Assembly: GCF_003334785.1 (NCBI RefSeq)
Contig: NZ_QOWV01000002.1
Reading direction: 5' to 3' (one strand)
Source: Escherichia coli
GTDB taxonomy: Bacteria; Pseudomonadota; Gammaproteobacteria; Enterobacterales; Enterobacteriaceae
DNA length: 64,000 bases
Each line of letters begins with the position of its first letter. The stretch's first letter is position 1. The notes beneath the pieces were generated by a model. The model saw only the letters and a program-made list of their open reading frames with translations, was not told where the DNA came from and did not search any database. Positions 11,295 to 62,030 of the stretch are shown in pieces. Position numbers and translations under genes: made by a program.

Positions 11295-11388
11295 TGTACC
11301 GACCGGGCAGTGTTGCTGCCCGGTTCAAACATCATGGGATTCTGTGGTAAACTTCTCGCGATTTTGTGAAATCCTGGTTGAGGTATCT

Positions 11389-12090
11389 CTGAACACACCG
11401 GCACAGCTCTCTTTGCCACTTTATCTTCCTGACGACGAAACCTTTGCAAGTTTCTGGCCGGGGGATAACTCCTCTTTACTGGCCGCGCTGCAAAACGTGC
11501 TGCGTCAGGAACATAGCGGTTACATCTATCTCTGGGCACGCGAAGGCGCGGGGCGCAGCCATCTGCTGCACGCGGCTTGCGCGGAATTGTCGCTGCGTGG
11601 CGATGCGGTGGGCTATGTCCCGCTGGATAAACGCACCTGGTTTGTTCCGGAAGTGCTCGACGGTATGGAGCATTTGTCGCTGGTCTGTATCGACAACATT
11701 GAGTGTATTGCAGGCGATGAGTTGTGGGAGATGGCGATTTTCGATCTCTACAATCGAATTCTGGAATCGGGCAAAACACGGTTGTTGATCACCGGCGATC
11801 GTCCACCGCGGCAGTTGAATCTGGGATTACCGGATCTCGCGTCGCGACTCGACTGGGGGCAGATCTACAAATTGCAGCCACTTTCTGATGAAGATAAGTT
11901 GCAGGCGCTACAGTTACGCGCGCGTTTGCGTGGTTTTGAACTGCCGGAAGATGTGGGGCGTTTCTTGCTGAAGCGGCTCGACAGAGAAATGCGCACGCTA
12001 TTTATGACGTTGGATCAGTTGGATCGTGCGTCGATTACCGCGCAACGTAAGCTGACCATTCCGTTTGTGAAAGAAATTCTGAAGTTGTAG
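11389..12090 (+). CDS. hda: DnaA-inactivating AAA+ protein Hda (regulatory inactivation of DnaA)
   Basis: DnaA-like AAA+ core ([27 protein letters not shown]); the mature N-terminus ...[18 protein letters not shown] aligns with an in-frame CTG (233 aa); the ORF-track GTG at 11344 would give 248 aa. Confidence 0.85.
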
Positions 12091-12104
12091 ATAAGGTGTT
12101 TATT

Positions 12105-12201
12105 GTCGGATGCGGCGCGAACGCCTTATCCGAACTACGCGAAGTTAATCCATAGTATTCGTAGGCCGGATAAGACGTGGCAAGCGTCGCATCCGGCAAT
12201 G
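12105..12201. repeat. REP/BIME: two inverted REP units between convergent hda and yfgD
   Basis: gtcGGATGCGGCGcgaacGCCTTATCCGaa and GCCGGATAAGacgtggcaagCGTCGCATCCGGCA; the canonical E. coli REP palindrome. Confidence 0.8.
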
Positions 12202-12227
12202 TGCTTCAACTAGCGATGGAGCACATC

Positions 12228-12587
12228 TTAACCCACGATTTCCAGTACCTGCTCCGGTGGACGACCAATCCGCGCTTTGCCATTCGCGACCACAATCGGG
12301 CGCTCCATCAGCTTCGGATTATCCACCATTGCCTGAATCAGCGCCTCTTCGCTAAGCGAACTGTCAGCCAGGTTCAGTTCTTTATAAAGATCCTCTTTCT
12401 GGCGCATCAATTCACGGGCGCTATTCATCCCCAGTATTTTCAGCAAATCGCGCAGCGTTGCCGCATCGGCGGGTGTCTCAAGGTAGAGCACCACTTCTGG
12501 CTCCACGCCGTTTTCTTTCAGCAGGTTCAGCGTTTCCCGGCTCTTTGAACAGCGTGGGTTATGGTAGATTTTTACCTGTTTGGTCAT
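12228..12587 (-). CDS. yfgD: ArsC/Spx-family small thiol protein YfgD
   Basis: 119 aa; N-terminal CxxS motif (HNPRCSKSRETL) typical of the ArsC family. Confidence 0.85.
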   Translation of the reverse strand: MTKQVKIYHNPRCSKSRETLNLLKENGVEPEVVLYLETPADAATLRDLLKILGMNSARELMRQKEDLYKELNLADSSLSEEALIQAMVDNPKLMERPIVVANGKARIGRPPEQVLEIVG

Positions 12588-12607
12588 TGTTCTTCCTTTA
12601 ATGCGAA

Positions 12608-14071
12608 TTACATCTTGGTATAAGGCTTAAAGCGTTCCTGCAGCTGGCGCAACTGGTCGATGCGCGCATCGTAACGCGCTTGTTGCAGGCTGCCTAATTT
12701 CACCTGCGAACTGGCGCTACTCAACAGCGAAATGGCCTGATCGAGTCGTCCGGCGAGCGCATAACCTTCTGCTCGCGCAGCCAGCTCCTGATCGCGGTTA
12801 TTTAGCGCGGCTTCCGCCTGTGCCAGCAAATCCCAGCCGTTGCTGTCATCTTTATTATTAAAGGTGTAGCGATTCAGAATATTGGCCGCTTCTTGTGGTT
12901 GACCGCCTTGCAAATAAGCGTTCGCCAGGTTGAGCTGCAACACCGGATTGGTGCGTAAATCGCGGGCATTTTTCAGACGATTGATCGCCTCATTGGCTTT
13001 GTTTTGCCCAAGATCGATATCAGTAGCCAGATCGAGATACCATGCGTTGCCAGGTTCTGCCGCCAGTAACGGTTGCAGCGTTTTACGCGCCTCGTCGTAT
13101 TTATTGGCTTCCATCGCCTGTAAAGCACGACCATATTGTGCTGCTCGTTGCTGACGAACGTTTCCTTTCGCCCATTCATCCAGCAAATCACTGGTGAGCT
13201 GGTTACGTCCGGAATTATACATCCCCAGTGTGCGCGCTTTCGCCAGATAGAAATCTTCCGACGACTGCACCACCATCGGGCGCATCTGATTAGCACGGTT
13301 GCGGGCATCTGCCAGACGACTTTCCGGCAACGGGTGAGTCAATAAAATTTCCGGCGGGCGCGAGGAGTAACGCGCCTGATCGAGTAATTTTTCGAGGAAG
13401 GTTGGCATCGCCTGCGGATCGAATCCCGAGCGTTGCAGCACCTGAATACCAATGCGGTCCGCTTCCTGTTCATTTTGCTGGGTGAAACTGATCATCCCCT
13501 GACGCGTTCCCGCCAGTGTACCGGTCAGCGCCGCCATCCCCGCCTGCGGACTGGCCATCGCCAGTAAAATAGAACCTAACGCGCCGACCCAGGTCAGCGG
13601 CGCGCTGCGCTGCTGATCTTCCATCGCTCGCGCCAGGTGACGTTGGGTGACGTGGGAGATTTCGTGCGCCATAACTGAAGCCAGTTGACTTTCGTTATCG
13701 GAATAACGGAACAGGGCAGAGTGCAGCACCACGTTGCCGCCAAAGAAAGCAAAGGCGTTAATTTCGTCGTTGTTGATCAGAAAAAAATGAAACGGTGTCT
13801 TAACCGAATTGGCATGCGAAACCAGACGCATCCCCAGCGAATTAATATATTGCGTTAACAGCGGGTCATTAATTAACGGCGCGCTGCCGCGTAGCTGGCG
13901 GACATAATAGTCGCCCATCTGCATTTCCTGACCAATGGAAAGCGTGCTTCCTGCGGAGGTTCCCATATCCGGCAAGGTGTCTGCGCTGTCGGCAAACGCC
14001 GGGGCTACCTGACCAATGGTCATAGCAGCAATGAGGGTTGCAACCAGGTTTTTTTTCAACTGCCTGAACAT
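12608..14071 (-). CDS. bepA: Periplasmic M48 metalloprotease/chaperone BepA (YfgC) with TPR domain
   Basis: 487 aa; signal peptide; HEISH zinc motif ([11 protein letters not shown]); TPR-like C-terminal half. Confidence 0.9.
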
Positions 14072-14283
14072 AACCTCTATCCTGTATTTCTGGAGATAGT
14101 CATTTGACCGATACTGTGAAATATCGTTCCCACCGCGCCGCCTTTGAGTGTAACGGCGAAGATTAGCCCACTCAAATGACTTTTCAGTTTCCTGAATCCG
14201 TCATAAAAAGCGAAGTCTTTTTTGTGACATTTCGATACAATTGCGGATCGCAATCCCGCTCTTGAGGTTCAGGGAAGGTCTTT

Positions 14284-15345
14284 ATGCTCGAAATGTTGAT
14301 GCAATGGTATCGCCGCCGTTTTAGCGACCCGGAAGCGATTGCCTTGCTGGTTATTTTAGTTGCCGGATTTGGCATTATCTTTTTCTTTAGTGGCCTGCTT
14401 GCTCCGTTGCTGGTGGCTATTGTGCTGGCCTATTTGCTGGAATGGCCAACCGTGCGTCTGCAATCTATTGGCTGCTCCCGCCGCTGGGCGACGTCGATTG
14501 TATTGGTGGTTTTCGTCGGTATATTGCTACTGATGGCGTTCGTGGTACTGCCTATCGCCTGGCAACAGGGCATCTACTTAATCCGCGATATGCCGGGGAT
14601 GCTCAATAAGCTTTCTGACTTTGCCGCCACGTTGCCGCGCCGCTATCCGGCGTTAATGGACGCGGGCATTATTGATGCAATGGCCGAAAATATGCGCAGT
14701 CGGATGCTGACCATGGGCGATTCGGTGGTGAAAATTTCCCTCGCCTCGCTGGTCGGTTTGCTGACCATAGCCGTCTATCTGGTGCTGGTGCCATTGATGG
14801 TCTTCTTCCTGCTGAAAGACAAAGAGCAGATGCTGAACGCCGTTCGCCGGGTGCTGCCGCGTAACCGTGGGCTGGCAGGACAGGTGTGGAAGGAGATGAA
14901 TCAACAAATCACCAACTATATCCGCGGCAAAGTGCTGGAGATGATCGTGGTGGGGATCGCCACCTGGCTGGGGTTCTTGCTCTTCGGGCTGAACTATTCG
15001 CTGCTGCTGGCAGTGCTGGTCGGCTTCTCGGTTCTTATTCCGTACATTGGCGCATTTGTGGTGACCATTCCGGTGGTTGGCGTGGCGCTATTCCAGTTTG
15101 GCGCAGGTACTGAATTCTGGAGCTGCTTCGCGGTGTATCTGATTATTCAGGCGCTGGACGGCAACCTGTTAGTGCCGGTGTTGTTCTCCGAAGCGGTTAA
15201 CCTGCATCCGCTGGTGATTATTTTATCGGTGGTGATCTTCGGTGGTTTGTGGGGATTCTGGGGCGTATTCTTCGCCATTCCGTTGGCGACGCTGATCAAA
15301 GCCGTGATTCATGCCTGGCCCGATGGGCAAATCGCGCAAGAATAA
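14284..15345 (+). CDS. perM: AI-2E/PerM-family permease (YfgO)
   Basis: 353 aa polytopic membrane protein with the conserved C-terminal motif typical of the family. Confidence 0.85.
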   Translation: MLEMLMQWYRRRFSDPEAIALLVILVAGFGIIFFFSGLLAPLLVAIVLAYLLEWPTVRLQSIGCSRRWATSIVLVVFVGILLLMAFVVLPIAWQQGIYLIRDMPGMLNKLSDFAATLPRRYPALMDAGIIDAMAENMRSRMLTMGDSVVKISLASLVGLLTIAVYLVLVPLMVFFLLKDKEQMLNAVRRVLPRNRGLAGQVWKEMNQQITNYIRGKVLEMIVVGIATWLGFLLFGLNYSLLLAVLVGFSVLIPYIGAFVVTIPVVGVALFQFGAGTEFWSCFAVYLIIQALDGNLLVPVLFSEAVNLHPLVIILSVVIFGGLWGFWGVFFAIPLATLIKAVIHAWPDGQIAQE

Positions 15346-37104: not shown

Positions 37105-37190
37105 CCTGGCCTGATAAGACGCGTGAGCGTCGCATCAGGCATCGTTCACCATTGCCGGATGCGGCGTTAACGCCTTATCCGGCCTACGGT
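37105..37190. repeat. REP/BIME: two inverted REP units between convergent ypfH and ypfN
   Basis: GCCTGATAAGACGCGtgagCGTCGCATCAGGC and GCCGGATGCGGCGttaaCGCCTTATCCGGCCTAC. Confidence 0.8.
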
Positions 37191-37202: not shown

Positions 37203-37403
37203 TTACTTCTTCGGTTGATCCTTTTTCGGCCAGTCGTCGTCATCGTCCCACTTATCGTTGAAATCACGATGCGGGGGAAGCTCCGGCTTGTTGGCGAGAA
37301 ATTTCTTATGGTCGACGCGCTTGAGATCTTTAATCACGTTCAGCAGGACGCCTACCAAAAAGACAATCACCAGAATCCACCAATATTTAGCCAGCCAGTC
37401 CAT
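37203..37403 (-). CDS. ypfN: Small membrane protein YpfN (66 aa)
   Basis: [23 protein letters not shown] single TM helix followed by a charged tail ([14 protein letters not shown]); the ORF track is extended by 8 codons. Confidence 0.75.
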
Positions 37404-37430
37404 GCTTATTTCCTCTTGCAGAACCACTCA

Positions 37431-38558
37431 TCAGGCGACGAGCTGTTCCATGATACGTTGATACATACGGGCAAGTAGCTGCAGGTCGGCAGCGTTCACA
37501 CATTCATTAATTTTATGAATAGTGGCATTGACCGGCCCGAGTTCCACCACCTGCGCCCCCATGCGGGCAATAAAGCGCCCGTCGGACGTTCCGCCTGTGG
37601 TCAGTAGCTGCGGTTTAATTTCATTATAGTGCTCAACCGCGTTAACGACCGCATCCACCAGTTTACCGCGCGCGGTCAAAAATGGCTGCCCGGAAAGCCA
37701 CCAATCCACCGTATAGCGCAGTTGATGTTTTTCAAGCAGGGCAAGCACCTGCGCTTTGATCATCTCATCAGTCAGTTCGGTGCTGAAGCGGAAGTTAAAC
37801 TGCACAAACAGTTCACCCGGAATAACGTTGTTACTGCCCGTTCCCGCCTGAATATTGGCAATCTGCATACTGGTCGCCGGGAAGAATTCATTGCCCTGAT
37901 CCCACTCAATAGCCACTAATTCATTAAGGAAAGGTGCTGCGCGATGTACCGGATTGTCAGCCAGATGTGGGTAGGCAACATGCCCCTGAACGCCATGAAT
38001 GGTAAGGTTGCAGGTTAATGATCCGCGACGACCATTTTTCACCACATCACCTACCACTTCGATACTCGACGGTTCGCCAACCAGGCAGTAATCGAGACGC
38101 TCATTACGTGCCATTAACGCTTCGACGACTTTTACCGTACCGTTGTGGGCACTGGCTTCTTCATCAGAGGTGATCAGAAATGCCAGTCGCCCCGTATGGT
38201 TGGGATGTTGTGCGACAAAACGTTCTGCCGCCACCACCATCGCCGCCAGCGAGCCTTTCATATCTGCCGCACCGCGCCCGAATAACATGCCGTCACGAAT
38301 GGTGGGTTCAAACGGGGGATTGATCCAACGATCGGCGTCGCCAGGCGGCACCACGTCGGTATGCCCGGCAAAGGCTAACGTTTCACCCTGCCCACGCCAT
38401 GCCCAAAAATTCTGCGTATCGGCAAAGTCCATGCGTTCAACGGTAAAACCGATCGCCTGCAAACGTTCAATCAACAAAGCCTGGCATCCTGCATCATCAG
38501 GACTCAGGGAAGGGCGGCGAATAAGCTGTTGTGTCAGCTCAATAACCGGGCACGACAT
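37431..38558 (-). CDS. dapE: Succinyl-diaminopimelate desuccinylase (M20 peptidase)
   Basis: 375 aa; M20 family metal-binding motifs ([15 protein letters not shown]). Confidence 0.93.
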
Positions 38559-38561
38559 AGA

Positions 38562-38936
<375 letters not shown>

Positions 38937-39298
38937 TTATGAGAATAAATACTCATTTAAGGGTGAAAACATTTTGCCTGCAAATGATTATCAGGAAATA
39001 TAACATTATCGAAGTATTCAAATTAACAACTATTAAATAATATTAAACATTTTTAACGTAAACATTAAGAATATTCATCTTGTTATCTGTCTGTATTTTA
39101 ACCAGAATTAAATCAGTATTAGATGCCGTATGAATATCTCGAAATGTTGCTGTGTATCACATACAAATCATCACCGCAGGACCATAGTATTTACATAAGA
39201 TTTGTCCCCCGGAGGTAGTCATCGCAGCAATCGAGTAAATTAGCTTCACCACGGTATATTGTTTCCGTAGAATACCCATAATTATAAGAGAGGTTGTT

Positions 39299-39358
39299 AT
39301 GATTGAACGTGAACTGGGGAACTGGAAAGACTTTATCGAAGTTATGCTTCGTAAGTAA
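39299..39358 (+). CDS. ypfM: Very small protein YpfM (19 aa)
   Basis: atg att gaa cgt gaa ctg ggg aac tgg aaa gac ttt atc gaa gtt atg ctt cgt aag taa translates to MIERELGNWKDFIEVMLRK; AGAGAGG RBS 6 nt upstream; followed by hairpin terminators; absent from the ORF track because it is under 60 aa. Confidence 0.75.
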   Translation: MIERELGNWKDFIEVMLRK

Positions 39359-39419
39359 TTCCTGAGACAAAGTACAAACAGCAAGAACCCGCTGAGCAGG
39401 TTCTTAATCGGAAAGTTGA

Positions 39420-39452
39420 AAAAGGCGACACATTGGCATGTCGCCTTTTTTA
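39420..39452. terminator. Bidirectional rho-independent terminator between ypfM and the acrD 3' end
   Basis: GGCGACA-cattggca-TGTCGCC followed by TTTTTT on the plus strand, with an A-run on the other side. Confidence 0.65.
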
Positions 39453-39456
39453 TTGC

Positions 39457-61841: not shown

Positions 61842-62030
<189 letters not shown>

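Follow-up and report, generated by a model that had tools for sequence, protein, structure and literature searches.

Two ArsC-fold genes in separate operons

The window, a 64-kb stretch of Escherichia coli chromosomal DNA, holds two genes of the ArsC/Spx fold, both on the minus strand. The first, yfgD (12228-12587), encodes a 119-aa cytoplasmic, glutaredoxin-type protein of the ArsC clade whose N-terminus reads ...HNPRC13SKS16R.... It follows bepA (yfgC; 12608-14071, minus strand), the first gene of the operon, which encodes a periplasmic M48 zinc metallopeptidase/chaperone (742.6 bits on NF052400, M48_BAM_BepA, against a cut-off of 570). The second, yffB (38562-38918), encodes a 118-aa monothiol protein of the YffB family with the motif G6-x3-C10-x3-K14 and precedes dapE (37431-38558, minus strand), the gene for succinyl-diaminopimelate desuccinylase (585.6 bits on NF009557 and 574.3 bits on TIGR01246), a member of the M20 peptidase family. 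PGAP labels the gene beside bepA 'arsC: arsenate reductase (glutaredoxin)' and the gene beside dapE 'yffB: ArsC family reductase'. Our check of the open reading frames reproduced the coordinates, strands, lengths, and CxxS N-terminus of YfgD given in the first-pass annotation, as well as the abutment of yfgD on the M48 gene and the close coupling of yffB to dapE, with gaps of 20 nt and 3 nt, respectively. Both regions are carried by all 5426 of 5426 complete genomes, and the window contains no further ArsC-fold gene, no arsR, and no arsB.

The two genes had been described as paralogues. This holds at the level of the superfamily, where both proteins match the Pfam ArsC model PF03960 (YfgD E = 2.4e-26, YffB E = 5.6e-22) and hhalign pairs them with a probability of 94.8%, but not for any closer kinship: their identity is 18%, and BLASTP of YfgD against YffB returned zero alignments at E <= 100. 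Judged by the sequences, so deep a divergence excludes a recent duplication. The chance that two PF03960 genes lie 26 kb or less apart is about 0.03, a rough estimate for three genes (arsC, yfgD, and yffB) in a 4.6-Mb genome. Most likely, yfgD and yffB separated early within the ArsC/Spx thioredoxin-like superfamily, function independently of each other, and lie 26 kb apart by happenstance.

The stop codon of bepA (TAA, 12610-12608) stands 20 nt ahead of the yfgD ATG (12587). This spacer (12588-12607, minus strand) holds only the yfgD Shine-Dalgarno sequence AAGGAAG (12598-12592); a scan for a promoter or terminator inside it was negative, and it is too short for either. Upstream of bepA lies a candidate sigma-E-type promoter, GGAACGA-N16-TCAAA (14103-14130, minus strand), the single match to this pattern across the 64-kb window (0.13 expected). 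The motif fits published work in which bepA-yfgD is a bicistronic operon dependent on sigma-E (PMC7075262, PMC2731931); the co-expression analysis that the first-pass annotation had proposed for this pair was thus anticipated by existing work. Downstream, yfgD and hda converge on an intergenic region (12100-12227, no strand assigned) with REP-like GC-rich palindromes, GCCGGATGCG...CGCATCCG. A scan of this region detected no canonical T-tract terminator; the transcript probably ends here.

At the second locus, the yffB stop codon (TAG, 38564-38562) is separated by 3 nt from the dapE ATG (38558), and the dapE Shine-Dalgarno sequence (GAGG, 38570-38567) lies within yffB, such that the junction (38556-38570, minus strand) reads GAGG, then TAG, tct, ATG. 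By its sequence, this layout indicates translational coupling to dapE of yffB, the first gene of the yffB-dapE operon. In the acrD-yffB intergenic region (38919-39456, minus strand), the acrD terminator hairpin (39417-39452) is followed by an AT-rich stretch, which should be the site of the putative yffB-dapE promoter. The same region holds, on the opposite strand, the small gene ypfM, and a MarA ChIP peak has been reported in Salmonella at 'ypfM<>yffB' (PMC10268841). Around both operons, scans for sigma-70 promoters and for terminators gave nothing exceeding shuffled expectation, and Rfam models identified no riboswitch or leader close to either.

YfgD retains the catalytic residues of ArsC

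On the TIGR00014 'arsC' equivalog model, to which YffB has no match, YfgD reaches 161.9 bits (cut-off 106.05), and its identity to E. coli ArsC is 42% (E = 1e-30). In an alignment to R773 ArsC (1I9D), YfgD C13, S16, R17, R62, R96, and R109 correspond to ArsC C12, S15, R16, R60, R94, and R107, which places the catalytic cysteine at C13 and the arginine triad at R62, R96, and R109; the equivalents of ArsC H8, N9, and P108 are retained as well (YfgD H9, N10, and P110). The ArsC catalytic positions are kept in at least 98 of 104 diverse YfgD relatives (50%-cluster representatives), among which the clade-specific residues R12, S14, K15, E65, E95, G108, and P111 are conserved too. YfgD contains both residue sets 1 and 2 (Cys12, Arg60/Arg94/Arg107, and His8/Asn9/Ser15) that have been termed 'required for arsenic resistance' (PMC5593903).

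From the location of both genes outside an ars operon, the first-pass annotation had concluded that an arsenate-reductase role is unlikely. The premise is correct. In addition to the window, we surveyed 87 YfgD-like loci from elsewhere; the metagenome loci were retrieved with a DNA pattern encoding RCSKSR, the active-site loop, and represent that sub-clade only. No arsR and no convincing arsB was found near the YfgD-like gene in any of them (0/87, in a search for ArsR and ArsB); the sole match, in L135, was a 22%-identity ArsB several kb away. For YfgD the conclusion nevertheless does not follow because of the TIGR00014 score, the identity to ArsC, and the complete catalytic set. YfgD can probably reduce arsenate. 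Its chemistry would most likely be ArsC-like: Arg62, Arg96, and Arg109 would hold a tetrahedral oxyanion for attack by the Cys13 thiolate, and glutathione and glutaredoxin would then resolve the adduct. By its loop, RCSKSR rather than ACGTSR, YfgD is assigned to a housekeeping, stress-linked sub-clade, and the clade-specific loop residues could give it a substrate other than arsenate.

We regard it as doubtful that E. coli has in YfgD a second, bona fide arsenate reductase that accounts for As(V) reduction without ArsC in arsC deletion mutants. The full catalytic set and the score above the equivalog cut-off are what such an enzyme would have, and in one study, whose authors did not consider yfgD, E. 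coli deleted for arsC went on reducing >94% of the As(V) supplied (PMC6176005). However, the deletion strain was 10-fold more sensitive to As(V), which implies that YfgD at its native level is no substitute for ArsC in resistance (PMC6176005), and the screen of Chrysostomou et al. (2015) for As(V) resistance in a delta-arsC background, as that paper cites it, led to overexpressed GstB. Moreover, yfgD is regulated by sigma-E rather than by arsenic (PMC7075262), its loop reads RCSKS in place of ACGTS with E65 and E95 specific to the clade, and the conserved partners in the 87 loci are wrbA and DUF2069 instead of arsR and arsB. YfgD carries the automatic annotation 'arsenate reductase (glutaredoxin)'. 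It has been overlooked in work on how E. coli reduces arsenate independently of ArsC.

YffB lacks the ArsC arginine triad and the Spx CxxC motif

YffB scores 227.4 bits on NF008107 (cut-off 121) and is 54% and 48% identical to the proteins of structures 2KOK and 1RW1, respectively. At least 95% of 80 YffB sequences share G6, C10, K14, N56, and K91, and C10 is invariant (80/80). YffB therefore shows the features of its family: the NF008107 score, a G-x3-C-x3-K motif with one conserved Cys, and Asn60/Lys93 in ArsC numbering. When it is aligned to YfgD by hhalign, YfgD R62 is replaced by N and R109 by F (R60 and R107 in ArsC numbering), and only K-R-P is kept; ArsC H8 and S15 are replaced by G and I. 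Loss of the catalytic arginines in the YffB family has likewise been reported (PMC3169414, PMC5593903), and a coevolution signature sets YffB N60/K93 against ArsC R60/R107/P108 (PMC5593903). Knockout of a Campylobacter member of the YffB subfamily left arsenic MICs unchanged (PMC3598800). An arsenate-reductase role is thus unlikely for YffB, because the oxyanion-binding arginine triad is lacking, and for this protein the earlier verdict stands.

Several observations would fit YffB being a redox-sensing regulator of the Spx/MgsR type, with RNA polymerase or some other partner as its target and no enzymatic function. YffB passes the TIGR01617 'Spx/MgsR family' model (116.9 bits, cut-off 75.05), its next-best PDB matches are Spx structures (E about 3e-9 to 3e-7), and some sources label YffB relatives 'Spx/MgsR family transcriptional regulator'. 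We nonetheless consider this improbable because YffB has neither a CxxC motif nor the C-terminal tail of Spx. At position 13 all 80 sequences (80/80) carry I, V, or M, leaving no CxxC in any, and in the alignment of 81 sequences, E. coli YffB counted in, 47 have just one Cys. The 118-aa protein has no C-terminal extension, and the 131-132-aa Spx chains match it only across residues 1-115. NF008107, which is more specific than the broad TIGR01617, scores YffB far higher, and its orthologues from Pseudomonas and Brucella are monomers in which glutathione binds beside the active-site Cys (PMC3169414). YfgD falls under the TIGR01617 cut-off (49.8 bits), and its CxxS motif provides no CxxC switch. 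As we read it, this YffB-family protein would be a glutathione-binding thiol reductase of the monothiol type (Cys10).

Neighborhoods of yffB and YfgD-type genes

To place yffB in context we used the 80 loci most similar to E. coli YffB, a set in which Beta- and Alphaproteobacteria are undersampled. Seventy-four were evaluable gammaproteobacterial loci; two others (L001 and L014) end directly downstream of yffB, and four (L066, L077, L079, and L080) are alphaproteobacterial. In all 74 evaluable loci, dapE, dapD, and/or dapC lie beside yffB on the same strand, in arrangements that vary by lineage: yffB-dapE in Enterobacterales, Aeromonas, Vibrionaceae, and Alishewanella; dapC-dapD-yffB-dapE in Chromatiaceae; glnD-dapC-dapD-yffB-dapE in Marinomonas; glnD-dapC-(nth)-yffB-dapD...dapE in Pseudomonadales and Cellvibrionaceae; and dapD-yffB alone in L056. 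None of the four alphaproteobacterial loci has dap neighbors (0/4). We conclude that across Gammaproteobacteria yffB is linked to the succinylase branch of diaminopimelate (DAP) synthesis (dapC, dapD, and dapE) and not to peptidases. The most likely role of YffB would be thiol-dependent maintenance or repair in the service of this pathway, although conserved gene order can also be inherited synteny without a functional link, and the glnD-dapD block is itself an old synteny.

YfgD-type genes keep different company. At the position immediately downstream, wrbA is found in 23 of 68 evaluable YfgD-like loci, with gaps mostly of -4 to +10 nt, and WrbA or DUF2069 is encoded downstream in 31 of the 68. 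Immediately upstream, bepA is found in 5 of 60 evaluable environmental loci (~8%). Four further YfgD representatives that we examined have contexts without bepA, and one (P0252) sits on an 857-bp contig with no readable neighbors. The bepA-yfgD pair also occurs in loci whose BepA is 39-45% identical to that of E. coli, an identity that places these bepA-linked metagenome loci outside Enterobacteriaceae, and intermediate forms exist: bepA-yfgD-wrbA-DUF2069 (L128) and perM-bepA-tlpA-yfgD-wrbA-DUF2069 (L126). The ancestral operon partners of the YfgD sub-clade were probably a WrbA-type NAD(P)H:quinone oxidoreductase and the DUF2069 membrane protein, and the placement of yfgD behind bepA would be lineage-restricted synteny rather than a protease-reductase partnership. 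Such a partnership is disfavored because BepA is periplasmic, with a signal peptide visible in its translation, and YfgD has no signal peptide.

The first-pass annotation had implied a common theme, an ArsC-fold protein beside a metallopeptidase. If the theme had a functional basis, YfgD and YffB would act on the adjacent zinc metallopeptidases BepA and DapE, for example as redox chaperones or regulators, and both pairs are indeed co-oriented, tightly spaced, and found beyond Escherichia (yffB-dapE throughout Enterobacterales, Aeromonas, and Vibrionaceae; bepA-yfgD with the divergent BepA proteins described above). We find this highly improbable. In addition to the separation of BepA and YfgD by compartment and the scarcity of bepA before YfgD-like genes, yffB remains beside dapD (an acyltransferase gene) and dapC (an aminotransferase gene) in loci that lack dapE or have it at a distance of 1-4 kb, and the two ArsC-fold proteins share no pairwise similarity detectable by BLASTP. 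The metallopeptidase neighbor in both pairs is a coincidence.

Some leads on YfgD-type operons did not hold up. A transmembrane electron relay from the YfgD-like protein through DUF2069 to a periplasmic TlpA-like protein was rejected because DUF2069 has no conserved cysteine; the TlpA-like protein does contain WCxPC. AlgU/sigma-E control of an Azotobacter arsC-wrbA operon was also rejected, because the 'arsC' in question is an alkylresorcinol synthase gene (PMC10651043). A study of PA0949/WrbA says nothing about the adjoining arsC-like gene (PMC4051601).

Interpretation

Both gene names, both operons, and the orthologue structures are already known. The protein identities, residues, operon geometry, and neighborhood statistics reported here are observations; we infer the substrates and physiological roles, since our search of the literature turned up neither an enzymatic nor a genetic test for YfgD or YffB of E. 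coli. On balance, we favor the view, with somewhat better than even confidence, that YfgD is a stress-linked enzyme of the ArsC clade and YffB a dap-linked, glutathione-binding thiol reductase, each independent of the other.

Only tentatively would we go further and propose that neither protein exists primarily for arsenic, YffB serving the succinylase DAP pathway and YfgD-type proteins belonging with a WrbA/DUF2069 stress module. For YfgD, the 'short ArsC' proteins would then be housekeeping ancestors of plasmid ArsC and, with their WrbA and DUF2069 partners, would form an envelope-stress or quinone-redox module whose physiological substrate is an oxyanion or a thiol adduct. YffB would be a thiol reductase or repair factor that depends on glutathione and is dedicated to the succinylase pathway, where it might keep DapD, DapC, DapE, or a CoA/thiol by-product reduced. 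If this is true, YffB is an unrecognized accessory part of the DAP pathway, which is essential and is itself a target of antibiotic development. The linkage to dapC, dapD, and dapE gives a family known only from structural genomics a testable hypothesis, one that bears on the synthesis of DAP and peptidoglycan precursors.

Comparison with known systems

The closest known structures to YfgD are its orthologues 3RDW (E = 1.6e-47, 67% identity) and 3F0I (E = 4.6e-42, 62%), which match over the full length and share the RCSKSR loop. These structural-genomics 'putative arsenate reductases' come from Yersinia pestis and Vibrio cholerae, respectively, and inform on structure and not on function. With ArsC itself (R773 and E. 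coli arsRBC; 1I9D), YfgD shares the fold, the TIGR00014 family, the catalytic Cys, the His/Asn/Ser residues, and the arginine triad. It differs in length (119 aa against 141 aa, without the C-terminal ~25 residues), in the active-site loop (R-C-S-K-S-R against A-C-G-T-S-R) with the clade-specific E65, E95, G108, and P111, and in its genomic setting, sigma-E-regulated behind bepA and, in the related loci, without an arsR/arsB neighbor. The arsC-like/wrbA/DUF2069 operons of other Gammaproteobacteria, of which PA0950-PA0949 of P. aeruginosa is presumably an example of the arsC-like/wrbA pair, encode proteins of the same YfgD-type sub-clade with the RCSKSR loop. Unlike these operons, E. coli has lost the wrbA linkage: yfgD is followed by the convergent hda, and wrbA is not adjacent.

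YffB stands further from ArsC (21% identity to the E. coli protein, E = 0.007), with two of the three arginines absent. Its fold is common to the Spx/MgsR regulators, whose TIGR01617 model it passes; the regulators have a CxxC switch and a C-terminal tail, whereas YffB has neither and sits in a metabolic genomic context. PA3664 (1RW1, P. aeruginosa) and BR0369 (2KOK, B. melitensis) share with E. coli YffB the G-x3-C-x3-K motif and the single conserved Cys. E. coli YffB differs from these two proteins in carrying one more Cys, which is not conserved, and whereas Brucella-type yffB loci have no dap genes nearby, those of E. coli and other Gammaproteobacteria do.

The two loci in the window and the relationship of their products

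The window is E. coli chromosome. The segments 11300–14300 (annotated hda/arsC (= yfgD)/bepA/yfgO) and 37400–39000 (ypfN/dapE/yffB) each match 5426 of 5426 complete E. coli genomes, the former at no less than 95% identity. Each region also has one extra copy in a "plasmid" record among 20,395 E. coli records, which may be a wrongly assigned replicon or a plasmid carrying a large piece of chromosome. The ORF positions from the first-pass annotation were borne out. On the minus strand, yfgD (12228–12587; 119 aa, N-terminus ...IYHNPRC13SKS16RETL) follows bepA (12608–14071); a 20-nt spacer separates the bepA stop codon from the yfgD ATG, and the Shine-Dalgarno sequence AAGGAAG is its only feature. 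On the same strand, yffB (38562–38918; 118 aa) and dapE (37431–38558) form a classic translationally coupled arrangement, with the dapE ribosome-binding site inside the last yffB codons and a junction reading GAGGTG-TAG-tct-ATG. The convergent yfgD/hda intergenic region (12100–12227) is filled with REP-like GC-rich palindromes (GCCGGATGCGACGC...GCGCCGCATCCG), and no canonical T-tract terminator was detected there. Directly after acrD, a 14-bp hairpin (39417–39452), strong and flanked by T/A tracts on either side, looks like a bidirectional terminator between acrD and the ypfM/yffB region. Rfam naRNA4 (nucleoid-associated ncRNA 4/CssrE, a REP-derived element) matches at 37108–37184 (92.7 bits; in the ypfH–ypfN gap and directly downstream of yffB-dapE-ypfN) and at 61896–61977 (71.8 bits).

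YfgD and YffB had been described as paralogues. Both match Pfam ArsC (PF03960), so the shared family stands, but close kinship does not: the two proteins gave no BLASTP alignment even at E ≤ 100, and their homology was recovered by profile–profile comparison (94.8% probability, 18% identity). Searched against the window, E. coli ArsC matched only yfgD and B. subtilis Spx matched only yffB; a PDB search, independent of the Spx query, returned Spx structures as distant YffB matches. NCBIfam models separate the two cleanly. YfgD belongs to the TIGR00014 "arsenate reductase (glutaredoxin)" equivalog (161.9 bits versus a cut-off of 106) and YffB to the NF008107 "ArsC family reductase" (227.4 versus 121), with YffB also exceeding the cut-off of the broad Spx/MgsR subfamily model TIGR01617 (116.9 versus 75).

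yffB is linked to succinylase-branch diaminopimelate genes in Gammaproteobacteria

We scanned one genome per GTDB species for yffB context and mapped DapE, DapD (long and short types), DapC, GlnD, and Nth onto the 80 named loci returned, which are those most similar to E. coli YffB. The dap families scored above curated cut-offs (DapD_gpp 574 bits, DapC_gpp 673 bits, and dapD (TIGR00965) 396 bits). One or more same-strand dap genes of the succinylase branch lay beside yffB in all 74 evaluable gammaproteobacterial loci; the other six are two that end directly downstream of yffB (L001 and L014) and four alphaproteobacterial loci (Brucella and relatives), which have no dap gene near yffB. The order varies. 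In Enterobacterales, Aeromonas, Photobacterium/Aliivibrio, Alishewanella, and Orbaceae, dapE follows yffB by 6–126 nt on the same strand; Chromatiaceae have dapC-dapD-yffB-dapE and Marinomonas has glnD-dapC-dapD-yffB-dapE; Pseudomonadales, Cellvibrionaceae, and other marine gammaproteobacterial MAGs have glnD-dapC-(nth)-yffB-dapD, with dapE 1–4 kb further on or outside the locus; and a single locus (L056) has dapD-yffB only. Because a dap neighbor is kept through several different rearrangements, and only one of the three partners is a peptidase, we conclude that the meaningful association of yffB is with the succinylase diaminopimelate pathway and not with a metallopeptidase.

The endonuclease III (nth) homologue (TIGR01083, 222 bits) sits between dapC and yffB, ∼60–2300 nt upstream of yffB, in Pseudomonadales-type glnD-dapC-yffB-dapD clusters (L053, L054, L059, L067, L071, L074, and L078). 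Brucella-type loci carry an ArsR/SmtB-family regulator ∼4 kb downstream of yffB, 38% identical to E. coli ArsR (L066, 10070–10303; L077, 9556–9789); the link to yffB is probably fortuitous.

Our literature search found no paper on a link between yffB and the pathway. However, dapE sequencing work from 1992 reportedly already noted the yffB-dapE operon structure, and subsystem databases display the adjacency, so we do not claim the link as new. On regulation, MarA ChIP in Salmonella gave a peak in the ypfM–yffB interval (PMC10268841), and a yffB reporter fusion is repressed by the sRNA SdsR (PMC5137417). In one of the 5426 genomes (E. coli WP2-S18-ESBL-08, NZ_AP021946.1), an IS1A lies directly upstream of yffB (L210, 2028–2725) and overlaps the yffB start as annotated there (N-terminally extended), so that this viable strain has a displaced native yffB-dapE promoter region.

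YffB is probably neither an ArsC-type reductase nor an Spx-type regulator

E. coli YffB shares 54% identity with B. melitensis YffB (2KOK) and 48% with P. aeruginosa YffB (1RW1). In its profile alignment with YfgD, the cysteine and K/E-R-P motif are kept, while the equivalents of R773 ArsC R60 and R107 become Asn and Phe; such replacements have been described structurally (PMC3169414) and match the coevolving signature N60/K93 (PMC5593903). Moreover, knockout of the YffB-subfamily gene cj0717 in C. jejuni left arsenite, arsenate, and roxarsone MICs all unchanged (PMC3598800). An ArsC-type arsenate reductase is thereby rejected, and for YffB the earlier judgment that this role is unlikely holds. 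Among 80 genome-derived sequences C10 is invariant and position 13 is always occupied by I, V, or M rather than Cys, which argues against an Spx-type CxxC regulator. Also conserved are the G6-x3-C10-x3-K14 motif, H30, D31, N56, R58, T60, T61, K91, R92, and P93, and 47 of the 81 sequences in the alignment (the 80 plus E. coli) carry just one cysteine. The B. melitensis and P. aeruginosa orthologues are reported to bind glutathione adjacent to the G-x3-C-x3-K motif (PMC3169414). The best-supported mechanism is that of a monothiol, glutathione-dependent thiol reductase.

yfgD-like genes are associated with wrbA and DUF2069 more often than with bepA

For conservation of the yfgD context outside E. 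coli, we combined genomic contexts of diverse representatives with metagenome contigs scanned with a degenerate DNA pattern (HNPRCSKSR..[T/A]L loop), then clustered and annotated the neighboring ORFs. All 80 metagenome loci returned, a sub-clade with the RCSKSR loop given the pattern used, encode a YfgD-like protein (34–78% identity to E. coli YfgD). A WrbA-type NAD(P)H:quinone oxidoreductase (NF002999, 173 bits versus a cut-off of 141) is encoded directly downstream on the same strand in 23 of 68 evaluable loci, mostly with gaps of −4 to +10 nt, and WrbA or a DUF2069 membrane protein (PF09842) downstream in 31 of 68. Other neighbors are a divergent upstream YihY/BrkB membrane protein (15/60), an upstream TlpA/ResA-like thiol:disulfide oxidoreductase (10/60), and Hda within three genes (12/76). 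BepA is directly upstream on the same strand in 5 of 60 loci; counting loci with less upstream sequence and context look-ups it precedes the yfgD-like gene in seven, with one more at −2. These loci (YfgD identity 46–78%, BepA identity down to 39%) place the adjacency beyond E. coli, and intermediate orders occur (bepA-yfgD-wrbA-DUF2069 in L128; perM-bepA-tlpA-yfgD-wrbA-DUF2069 in L126). The bepA adjacency is therefore a minority arrangement inside a broader synteny block made up of envelope and housekeeping genes; wrbA and DUF2069 are the dominant operon partner of yfgD-like genes and probably the functional one. Given the bepA count, and with DapC and DapD as non-peptidase partners of yffB, the "metallopeptidase neighbor" theme proposed for both genes is coincidental.

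The arsC-like/wrbA/DUF2069 unit recurs with overlapping stop and start codons (L089, L111, L125, L127, L131, L160–L162, and others), often divergent from yihY/brkB and a TlpA-like WCxPC thiol:disulfide oxidoreductase, with sppA often next; its DUF2069 protein has no conserved cysteine. In some more distant YfgD-like loci (43–53% identity; L097, L114, L116, and L117), another quinone-linked neighbor, pyrD (quinone-dependent dihydroorotate dehydrogenase), lies directly upstream on the same strand.

The claim that neither yfgD nor yffB stands in an ars context was right. For yfgD, none of the 87 YfgD-like loci yielded an arsR, and the sole ArsB match among them is weak (22% identity) and several kilobases away (L135).

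In E. coli, published work places bepA and yfgD (formerly yfgC and yfgD) together in one bicistronic operon that depends on sigma-E (PMC2731931, in a table that cites Rhodius et al.; PMC7075262). The 64-kb window holds a single match to a sigma-E-type motif (GGAACGA-N16-TCAAA, 14103–14130; 0.13 expected by chance), and it lies ∼30 nt ahead of the bepA start codon. BepA has a signal peptide and YfgD has none, which argues against direct cooperation of the two proteins.

YfgD retains the ArsC catalytic residues

YfgD is 42% identical to the E. coli K-12 chromosomal ArsC (E = 1e-30). In a HMMER alignment to R773 ArsC (1I9D), YfgD H9, N10, C13, S16, R17, R62, R96, R109, and P110 correspond to H8, N9, C12, S15, R16, R60, R94, R107, and P108, comprising the catalytic cysteine, the arginine triad, and both residue sets described as requirements for arsenic resistance (PMC5593903). 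Of 104 full-length representatives of 50%-identity clusters from a search of 1.84 billion proteins, at least 98 retain the residue at each of these positions. Judged by its sequence, YfgD has everything that ArsC-type chemistry needs. Here the judgment that arsenate reduction is unlikely fails: the capability cannot be dismissed for a protein that belongs to the ArsC clade and carries its complete catalytic set. We found no experimental test of YfgD in the literature.

An E. coli arsC deletion strain still reduced >94% of supplied As(V) (PMC6176005). The authors ascribed this to GstB, citing Chrysostomou et al. 2015, and stated that the strain had no other annotated arsenic determinants; yfgD was therefore overlooked, and its product is an obvious candidate for the residual activity. 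Sensitivity of this strain to As(V) is 10-fold that of the wild type (PMC6176005); native-level YfgD is clearly no substitute for ArsC in resistance.

Discussion

Neither the genes nor their operons nor the structures of orthologues are new, which makes the finding itself an ordinary one. Two leads deserve mention, as each offers a way to approach gene function experimentally: an accessory role of YffB in the succinylase diaminopimelate pathway, and YfgD-type "short ArsC" proteins as possible partners of WrbA and DUF2069 and, in E. coli, as candidate enzymes of arsenate reduction without ArsC. YfgD is 67% and 62% identical to the structural-genomics "arsenate reductases" 3RDW and 3F0I, respectively. 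Across the 104 cluster representatives, YfgD-type proteins are distinguished by R12, S14, K15, E65, E95, G108, and P111, where R773 ArsC has A, G, T, V, N, C, and S, and the altered active-site loop leaves room for a preferred substrate different from that of ArsC.
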